Made by a program: the position numbers and the translations under genes
In this document: positions 56,113-58,914 of the stretch, piece by piece
Numbering within the stretch: the stretch's first letter is position 1
How the letters are laid out: each line of letters starts with the position of its first letter
The notes under the pieces: model-generated
The model's database searches: none
What the model saw: the letters and a program-made list of their open reading frames with translations, nothing else
What the model was told of the DNA's origin: nothing
NCBI RefSeq assembly: GCF_058153355.1
Contig: NZ_CM177019.1
DNA: 64,000 nucleotides
Reading direction: 5' to 3' (one strand)

Positions 56113-58648
56113 TGGCTTGTTAGCGGTTCAGCGTCTGGTGCGAGTCTGGAAGTTGATAATGGTCAGATTACCAATATTAATACTGATGTTGCTTACGATG
56201 CCTACCTGGTTGGGTGGTATGGCACTGGAGTGCTTAATATTTTGGCTGGCGGTAATGCCTCCTTAACCACTATTACTACCAGCGTCATTGGTGGTAATGA
56301 GGACTCAGAGGGCACCGTTAACGTTTTGGGTGGCACCTGGCGATTGTATGATAGCGGAAATAATGCAAGGCCTTTAAATGTGGGTCAATCCGGAACGGGG
56401 ACGCTGAATATTAAACAGAAGGGTCATGTTGACGGAGGATATTTAAGGATAGGTTCTTCGACAGGAGGCGTCGGGACGGTCAATGTTGAAGGAGAGGACT
56501 CGGTTCTGACGACCGAATTATTCGAAATAGGGAGTTACGGTACAGGCTCATTAAATATTACGGATAAGGGTTACGTCACGAGTTCAATAGTCGCCATTGT
56601 AGGATATCAGGCGAACAGTAATGGTAAGGTTGTCGTTGAAAAGGGTGGCGAGTGGCTAATAAAAAATAATGATTCCTCAATTGAATTTCAAATTGGTAAT
56701 CAAGGGACGGGCGAAGCAACTATTCGCGATGGGGGGCTAATTACGGCTGAAAATACGATTATCGGTGGCAACCTCACCGGTATCGGAACCCTGAATGTGC
56801 AGGATCAAGACTCTGTCATCACGGTACGCAGACTCTATATATTACTTTTTTGGGCGATAAAGCAAGCGGTATCGGCACACTGAACCTGATGGATGCGACA
56901 TCATCGTTCGATACTGTAGGTATCAATGTCGGTAATTTTGGTAGCGGCATCGTAAATGTCAGTAATGGTGCCACCCTTAATTCAACGGGCTATGGATTTA
57001 TCGGAGGAAATGCCTCCGGTAAGGGGATAGTTAATATTTCAACGGATAGTCTCTGGAATTTAAAAACGTCATCTACTAACGCCCAATTGCTACAGGTCGG
57101 TGTATTAGGCACGGGTGAACTGAATATTACCACCGGAGGTATAGTTAAAGCGCGTGATACACAGATAGCTCTCAATGACAAAAGTAAGGGCGACGTGCGG
57201 GTAGATGGGCAGAACTCTCTTCTTGAAACATTCAATATGAACGTAGGGACGACTGGCACAGGTACGTTAACCCTGACGAATAACGGCACGCTGAATGTCG
57301 AAGGTGGAGAAGTTTACTTAGGTGTTTTTGAGCCTGCCGTAGGAACGCTAAACATTGGTGCTGCTCACGGTGAGGTGGCGGCAGATGCCGGGTTTATCAC
57401 CAATGCGACGAAAGTGGAGTTTGGTCTTGGCGAAGGCGTTTTTGTCTTTAATCATACCAATAACAGTGATGCCGGCTACCAGGTCGATATGCTGATTACG
57501 GGTGACGATAAAGACGGAAAAGTGATGCATGATGCAGGCCATACGGTGTTCAATGCAGGGAATACTTATAGCGGCAAAACGCTGGTCAATGACGGCCTCC
57601 TGACTATTGCGTCACATACGGCAGATGGGGTAACAGGCATGGGTTCGAGTGAAGTAACCATTGCAAGCCCCGGTACGCTCGACATTCTCGCATCAACGAA
57701 CAGCGCAGGAGATTACACGCTGACCAATGCACTCAAAGGCGATGGCTTGAATTCAATATGAACGTAGGGACGACTGGCACAGGTACGTTAACCCTGACGA
57801 ATAACGGCACGCTGAATGTCGAAGGTGGAGAAGTTTACTTAGGTGTTTTTGAGCCTGCCGTAGGAACGCTAAACATTGGTGCTGCTCACGGTGAGGTGGC
57901 GGCAGATGCCGGGTTTATCACCAATGCGACGAAAGTGGAGTTTGGTCTTGGCGAAGGCGTTTTTGTCTTTAATCATACCAATAACAGTGATGCCGGCTAC
58001 CAGGTCGATATGCTGATTACGGGTGACGATAAAGACGGAAAAGTGATGCATGATGCAGGCCATACGGTGTTCAATGCAGGGAATACTTATAGCGGCAAAA
58101 CGCTGGTCAATGACGGCCTCCTGACTATTGCGTCACATACGGCAGATGGGGTAACAGGCATGGGTTCGAGTGAAGTAACCATTGCAAGCCCCGGTACGCT
58201 CGACATTCTCGCATCAACGAACAGCGCAGGAGATTACACGCTGACCAATGCACTCAAAGGCGATGGCTTGATGCGAGTGCAGCTGTCATCCTTCGACAAA
58301 ATGTTTGGCTTTACCCATGCAACAGGAACTGAATTCGCCGGTGTTGCCCAACTGAAAGACAGTACCTTCACACTGGAACGCGACAACACCGCTGCGCTTA
58401 CTCACGCGATGCTTCAGTCTGACAGTGAAAATACCACATCGGTAAAAGTGGGAGAGCAATCCATTGGTGGACTAGCCATGAATGGCGGTACGCTCACTTT
58501 CGATACGGATATACCTGCTGCGACGCTTGCGGAGGGATATATCAGCGTCGATACACTGGTTGTCGGCGCGGGTGACTACACCTGGAAAGGCCGTAACTAT
58601 CAGGTAAACGGGACGGGCGACGTGCTTTCCGCAAGTGCAGATGCATGA
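56113..58648 (+). pseudogene. Autotransporter adhesin passenger-domain fragment (AidA/ydeK-yneO-like), lacking signal peptide and beta-barrel, with internal frameshifts
   Basis: Frame opens after a stop with no start codon; Gly/Thr/Asn-rich beta-helix repeats (GTGTLN, VGxxGTGxLxI); broken into three ORFs (56230, 56850, 57758); no translocator domain. Confidence 0.7.
57230..58271 (+). repeat. Perfect tandem direct duplication, 2 x 521 bp, inside the autotransporter pseudogene
   Basis: Identical minus-strand ORFs at 57348-57542 and 57869-58063 (offset 521); sequence from ttcaatatgaacgtaggg to ggcgatggcttga occurs twice head-to-tail. Confidence 0.8.
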
Positions 58649-58802
58649 AATCCTGAGTGACTTTGCCAGAATGATTCCGGCAGCACTGGATAACGTGAAG
58701 ACTTCATTACCGACAGATTTTCCGGAGAACGTGGTGACGGCAGTTGAAACCAATGTGTTGAGGTTGCACCGTCGGTTAAGCCGAGAATACGGTATTAAGT
58801 AA
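58641..58802 (+). pseudogene. hipA: 3'-terminal remnant of the HipA toxin kinase gene (last 53 codons only)
   Basis: Manual translation MHEILSDFARMIPAALDNVKTSLPTDFPENVVTAVETNVLRLHRRLSREYGIK* matches the HipA C-terminus as recalled; no hipB or hipA body upstream. Confidence 0.6.
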
Positions 58803-58914
58803 GATATGGGGTTTGGCCGTTGTTAATGAGCAGGACAATCATTACCGCCAACGACTGGATTTTCCCTTGGTTTATGTTGGTGCGCATAATGTATATTATG
58901 TTAAATAGCCTACG

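Follow-up and report, generated by a model that had tools for sequence, protein, structure and literature searches.

In the 64-kb window (the whole 64,000-nt stretch of DNA that we analysed), an intact lsrK gene, whose product is identical to a widespread LsrK protein, is followed by the remains of an autotransporter gene. These run directly into the 3' end of hipA, behind which lie the sequence native to the downstream side of hipA and a 112-aa hypothetical ORF (Table 1). A search with the hipA stub and its downstream flank led to the closest intact reference, the locus of E. coli E200086 (L009). Thirteen complete E. coli genomes have an annotated hipA with this flank behind it, at about 99% identity. 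The one of these that was fetched, E200086, has an intact hipBA; its gene order is lsrR, lsrK, an intact 5,421-nt autotransporter gene, hipB and hipA, and the 112-aa hypothetical ORF follows there too. The right flank in the window is continuous from the stub, with 98.9% identity to L009 9998-10995, and matches strains that have an intact hipBA. In published work, hipBA has lsrRK and the yneO autotransporter on its upstream side and the F9 (yde) fimbrial region on its downstream side, and is said to border a variable region at the 5' end and to be itself relatively well conserved (PMC3966885); the flank seen here matches that description.

Table 1 Features of the lsrK-autotransporter-hipA interval, in window coordinates.
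Feature	Position	Strand	Basis
lsrK, intact left neighbour anchoring the locus	54447..56039	+	synteny with K-12 and L009
Upstream autotransporter pseudogene pieces in two other frames (residues 55-294 and 473-778)	56122..57761	+	blastn against L009, tblastn
Perfect tandem duplication, 521 bp (57230-57750 = 57751-58271)	57230..58271	+	0 mismatches; shifts the frame
Last open piece of the autotransporter remnant (residues about 605-894)	57758..58648	+	ORF list, NCBIfam, tblastn
Deletion junction, autotransporter ...GTGCTT / TCCGCAA... hipA	58625..58628	.	blastn breakpoints, three-way comparison, 61-mer in SRA assemblies
hipA remnant, codons 383-440 and native stop codon	58626..58802	+	phmmer, nucleotide identity with E200086 hipA, tblastn
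Sole substitution relative to the L009 hipA allele, four bases from the junction (G to C, E385Q)	58632	+
Native sequence downstream of hipA, then 112-aa hypothetical ORF (58915-59253)	58803..59253	+	synteny

Gene remnants on either side of the junction

The hipA remnant encodes HipA residues 383-440 at 58626-58799 (translation FPQVQMHEILSDFARMIPAALDNVKTSLPTDFPENVVTAVETNVLRLHRRLSREYGIK, a 58-residue peptide), with the native stop codon at 58800-58802. In a phmmer search of the PDB, the whole peptide was aligned to the stretch 383-440 in every solved structure of E. coli HipA (among them 3dnt; E = 7.3e-31), a score that excludes chance similarity. Identity as hipA is given both by homology and by orthologous position in the order lsrK-autotransporter-hipBA-variable region-F9 fimbriae, as the window is collinear with K-12 and E200086 on either side. 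The remnant lacks the start codon, the promoter and the kinase core of the gene. It is identical to the intact hipA of E200086 at 176 of 177 nt, and to the last 58 codons of K-12 hipA at 168 of 177 nt. The single base change relative to E200086, which may have arisen through faulty repair or by mutation at a later time, is also present in one SRA contig (L005) that is 100% identical to the window over 57751-58664. Upstream, the hipA frame is shut by a TAA at 58605-58607 and open from 58608, so that mechanical ORF calling yields 55 aa from a GTG at 58635 or 53 aa from the internal Met ATG at 58641. The initial annotation had recognised the extreme C-terminus of HipA from about 58626, and the search bears this out; its figure of 54 codons described a real stub but one counted from the Met at 58641, whereas 58 codons are kept.

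On the left side of the junction, the last open piece of the autotransporter gene covers positions 605-894 of the 1,806 positions of the NCBIfam model NF011422 (ECSE_1600-family autotransporter; E = 8.6e-190), a family that includes K-12 yneO. The ORF ends ...NYQVNGTGDVLSASADA, with a TGA at 58646-58648, which is where the initial annotation had placed its end. The autotransporter frame is one base off the hipA frame, and after the junction it continues for six out-of-frame residues (SASADA) before this stop. The two genes are thus joined as DNA, as had been proposed, but out of frame; because the frames differ, no chimeric protein is encoded beyond the six-residue tail.

The autotransporter gene was described beforehand as truncated. 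It is, and it carries three further lesions besides. Relative to L009, a 607-bp deletion at 56122 has removed the start codon, the first ~55 codons and the upstream region, and a 532-bp deletion at 56839 shifts the frame; each of these deletions is accompanied by 1-3 bp of microhomology. The third lesion, as assembled, is the 521-bp tandem duplication, a kind of feature that misassembly may also produce; its segment is single-copy in K-12, L009, L004 and L005, and its junction was found in none of the fetched loci. A contig that is 100% identical to the window (L006) begins 30 nt before the end of the repeat, as short-read assemblers do at repeat boundaries. The surviving passenger fragments comprise residues 55-294, 473-778 and 596-894, spread over three reading frames. 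Intact homologues possess an ESPR signal peptide, which lies within the lost first ~55 codons, followed by Pertactin, AC_1 and autotransporter beta-barrel translocator domains. A tblastn search of the 64-kb window with the full-length protein returned no autotransporter residues after 894, and therefore the latter three domains are absent. The combination of signal peptide, passenger and beta-barrel in one frame that marks an ECSE_1600-family (type Va) autotransporter is not present here. K-12 yneO (b4696), of the same family and at the same position, is a pseudogene too, but retains its full length of 5.4 kb, whereas the window retains residues 55-294 and 473-894, with neither signal peptide nor beta-barrel.

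Relatives that share the junction carry additional losses. In L005, the equivalent of window positions 58665-58859, which is most of the hipA stub, is deleted at L005 7946. In L004, a larger deletion runs from lsrK into the autotransporter gene (equivalent to window positions 55042-56522, at L004 6129-6134), so that lsrK is without its 3' two-thirds and a larger part of the autotransporter gene is missing. Judged from these alleles, the dead region is still eroding.

The deletion junction and its origin

A single junction, at 58626-58627, links autotransporter nt 2682 to hipA nt 1147, and the two bases concerned are a TT microhomology common to both parental sides. With the slash at the breakpoint, the autotransporter side in L009 reads ...GACGTGCTT/ATC and the hipA side ...GAAATTT/CCGGAAG, while the window reads ...GACGTGCTTTCCGCAAG over the junction. 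The interval lost is 4,367 bp relative to L009 (5633-9999) and 4,376 bp relative to K-12 (1,591,029-1,595,404). It contained autotransporter codons 895-1806, the intergenic hipBA promoter region, the whole of hipB and hipA codons 1-382. Alignment with K-12 from lsrA to ydeP is collinear through lsrR, lsrK and the autotransporter gene up to 58627 and resumes at 58626 within hipA; this comparison, suggested by the initial annotation for the K-12 interval, gave the predicted outcome of one junction. By tblastn, HipB has no match anywhere in the 64-kb window, and neither a second HipA segment nor HipA residues before about 377 were found in it. The absence of hipB, of the HipA kinase core and of the autotransporter beta-barrel, claimed beforehand, is thus confirmed for the 64-kb window by the searches that had been proposed, which recovered no HipB and no HipA beyond the stub. 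The deletion itself, with one junction, 2 bp of microhomology, a loss of about 4.37 kb and neither hipB nor the kinase core left, is directly observed.

We propose that the feature is a non-functional deletion scar of the autotransporter-hipBA locus that arose by one illegitimate recombination event, a reading to which we give a probability of about 0.93 on the strength of the sequence comparisons; none of the observations speaks against a scar. The ancestor would have possessed the arrangement lsrR-lsrK-autotransporter-hipB-hipA, which E. coli E200086 retains. Two TT dinucleotides would then have recombined illegitimately in one event, probably by replication slippage or microhomology-mediated end joining, with the loss of about 4.37 kb. 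Gone with it would be autotransporter codons 895-1806, which make up the 3' half of that gene, the region with the promoter and operators of hipBA, the complete hipB gene and the first 382 codons of hipA. The 58 leftover hipA codons would have been stranded with no promoter, ribosome-binding site or in-frame upstream gene, and erosion of the region would have continued after the deletion. The hipB gene cannot be removed alone while hipA is active, and joint loss of hipB with the 5' part of hipA is therefore the viable route.

The initial annotation had also envisaged one deletion, with a junction at 58620-58630. The junction lies in that range and is single; the single step is probable, since a single junction is also what nested successive deletions would leave. 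Two or more successive overlapping deletions, for instance with hipBA inactivated first and the autotransporter eroded later, would be in keeping with the three other rearrangements in the same pseudogene and the further deletions in its close relatives. We consider such a history unlikely, as there is only one junction, with a simple 2-bp microhomology, and an intermediate allele was found neither in the 5,426 complete genomes nor in any locus fetched. Z0117EC0005, the closest relative whose scar is different, has kept more of the autotransporter and less of hipA, and hence is no intermediate.

Coding capacity of the hipA stub

A functional HipBA module requires a HipA of about 440 aa, with the N-terminal Couple_hipA domain and the HipA_C core, and an adjacent upstream hipB under an autoregulated promoter. 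Intact HipA homologues carry PF13657 and PF07804; the window encodes only residues 383-440, and both hipB and the promoter lie inside the deleted interval. The autophosphorylation site (S150) and the catalytic aspartates (D309 and D332) of HipA all precede residue 383, so that the stub is without any kinase catalytic element. With the catalytic core absent, toxicity is not expected from the stub locus, and neither is neutralisation; the locus encodes neither toxin nor antitoxin.

The stub also lacks recognisable signals for expression. A promoter and terminator scan detected no promoter-like site on the plus strand in 58200-59300, and no AGGAG-like or other Shine-Dalgarno motif precedes the GTG at 58635 or the ATG at 58641. 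Rfam has no family match here, and the hipA fragment alone has none in NCBIfam. Read-through from lsrK could transcribe the remnant, but the stub is probably not expressed, and in the absence of a Shine-Dalgarno sequence and a promoter-like site we read it as a non-functional scar. The single difference in 177 nt from the intact allele makes the deletion recent, and for the same reason selection on the stub carries no signal.

It is very improbable, in our judgement, that the 55-aa or the 53-aa ORF has been retained as a functional small protein or regulatory element. Some hipBA sequence is present in 5,411 of the 5,426 complete genomes, and the 3' end of hipA is kept in six of the seven partial matches sampled, as retention would predict; but this apparent universality is in part artificial, the query having ended at the stop codon of hipA, and 3'-truncated hipA alleles exist too (H141; L014). 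The length of hipA retained varies by lineage (42, 52, 61, 177, 403 and about 927 nt), and L005, a close relative, is without most of the stub. The missing Shine-Dalgarno sequence, promoter-like site and NCBIfam match count against a small protein as well, and one difference in 177 nt permits no test of selection.

The non-functional scar therefore bears on how the locus is annotated: the 55-aa ORF should be labelled as part of a hipA pseudogene instead of a gene, and the strain should count as hipBA-negative at the canonical locus. The strain had been expected to be without this persistence-associated toxin-antitoxin (TA) module. That expectation holds for the canonical locus and the 64-kb window, the extent over which it has been shown, and HipBA function has probably been lost from the strain as a whole. 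Scoring strains as hipBA-negative is relevant to relating TA content and persistence across E. coli lineages.

Distribution of the junction and of hipBA decay in E. coli

The junction is spanned in none of the 5,426 complete E. coli genomes, and a scan of GTDB species representatives returned 0 matches, so that the genome of the window is absent from both collections; an exact-protein look-up of the junction-spanning 296-aa ORF returned no record. SRA contigs were reached through exact matches to the two proteins encoded downstream (112 aa and 400 aa), and the identical 61-nt junction is present in three that were independently assembled: L006 (SRR31441161; 100% identical to window 58242-64000), L004 (SRR8656992) and L005 (SRR28786219). 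The recurrence of the same 61-mer in three independent assemblies indicates that the junction is a genuine lineage allele and not a misassembly. The perfect 521-bp tandem duplication 350 bp upstream is of a kind that misassembly can yield, but for the junction an assembly artefact is refuted, and a chance resemblance to HipA is highly improbable, given the exact junction 61-mer in L004, L005 and L006, the HipA match at E = 7e-31 and the synteny on both flanks. With no occurrence in 5,426 complete genomes and three in SRA runs, the junction sequence provides a precise lineage marker.

In a search of the 5,426 complete E. coli genomes with the hipBA of L009, 4,564 proved to contain 80% or more of the query at one site, about 850 (about 16%) only a part and 15 nothing. 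Partial loss of the module is thus common, and the scar in the window is an ordinary case of gene decay. Four loci with partial hipBA show losses of the same kind. The O157 strain 180-PT54 has lost L009 6321-9246, so that an autotransporter gene without its C-terminus abuts a hipA without its N-terminus. BKQWHE has lost L009 6196-9250, Z0117EC0005 has lost L009 7606-10122 with 52 nt of hipA left, and PAR has lost everything from yneE to hipA nt 921, including the whole lsr operon. Each of these deletions takes hipB and the 5' part of hipA, and all of the breakpoints are different. At least four other deletion alleles thus exist, and the differing breakpoints indicate that hipBA decay has arisen independently in several E. 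coli lineages, including O157. Such a pattern fits the expectation of co-inactivating deletions, given that hipB is not removable while hipA is active.

Compared with these systems, the window carries a scar of its own. In K-12, hipBA encodes the HipA Ser/Thr kinase toxin and the HipB antitoxin and repressor and occupies the same chromosomal position; unlike in K-12, only HipA 383-440 is left here, and with hipB, the promoter, the operators and the kinase core gone, the remnant is unable to act as a TA module. The O157 180-PT54 scar records the same kind of event, with the autotransporter gene deprived of its C-terminus, hipA of its N-terminus and hipB gone, but its breakpoints are independent (L009 6321-9246, against 5633-9999 here), and it has kept about 308 hipA codons where the window has 58. 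The O157 scar is labelled by PGAP as two abutting pseudogenes, and for such loci the PGAP wording is that the hipA pseudogenes are 'incomplete, missing N-terminus'. BKQWHE, Z0117EC0005 and PAR have, like the window, a 3' hipA stub, each with its own breakpoints; in Z0117EC0005, the 7.6 kb upstream match the intact locus of E200086 at 100% identity. The literature that we found comprises the locus context (PMC3966885) and general TA reviews, with no description of this allele and no catalogue of natural hipBA deletions. The scar in the window is a new breakpoint allele of recurrent hipBA decay in E. coli.

At least five breakpoint-distinct alleles have now been seen, that of the window included. 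Whether this makes the autotransporter-hipBA interval a hotspot of recurrent, independent hipBA loss is a more tentative matter, and we regard a hotspot as conceivable but doubtful. If the interval were one, loss of the module would have been repeatedly tolerated, or even favoured, in some lineages, and such natural knock-outs, the lineage of the window among them, could be used to test the contribution of chromosomal HipBA to fitness or persistence.

Neighbouring sequence

Several features around the scar merit mention in their own right. The 112-aa ORF downstream of hipA, on the plus strand, has no family match and is a frameshifted hypothetical in RefSeq in E200086 and Z0117EC0005; in a further SRA contig (L007), it occurs in a different context, beside MComp1- and Cap4-nuclease-like genes. 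On the minus strand, 59498-59629 is part of a gene for a ParS/MbcA/Xre-family antitoxin (residues 21-64, where the protein of E200086 has 64 aa), and an unrelated AT-rich segment of about 266 bp (59625-59890) stands in place of the 5' end of the gene. No RES-type toxin partner was seen for this fragment. Within 1 kb of the hipA stub there is thus another remnant of a decayed TA system.

Further downstream, the minus strand at 60610-61812 encodes a 400-aa protein with IpaH/SspH2/SlrP-type LPX leucine-rich repeats (NCBIfam, E = 1e-31, for the LRR part only). The protein has no NEL ubiquitin-ligase domain, its N-terminal half is without a family match, and it is a hypothetical in RefSeq. Its repeat number differs by strain, giving proteins of 400, 417, 460 and 522 aa, and in related loci a gene for an ankyrin-repeat protein lies near the LRR gene. 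A 432-bp segment at 62298-62728, which is missing in E200086 and Z0117EC0005 and present in the SRA relatives, contains the ATG (62396) with which a 129-aa ORF begins; the ankyrin-repeat gene follows directly behind.

On the other side of the locus, the best match to a 22-kb core (30000-52000) among the 5,426 complete E. coli genomes reaches only about 96% identity, unlike the stretch from lsr to hipA, for which a few strains (E200086 and Z0117EC0005) reach about 99%. This contrast in identity points to a mosaic genome or to a lineage of Escherichia that is divergent, and a divergent E. coli lineage is suspected. Shigella, which the IpaH-like LRR ORF had brought to mind, was rejected, as the divergence is too great and the protein has no NEL domain. 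Within that core, a 402-aa ORF at 45651-46859 on the minus strand is the counterpart of a gene that E. coli genomes have at the same place, where it is annotated as encoding the InsQ/TnpB RNA-guided endonuclease (IS605 family OrfB).
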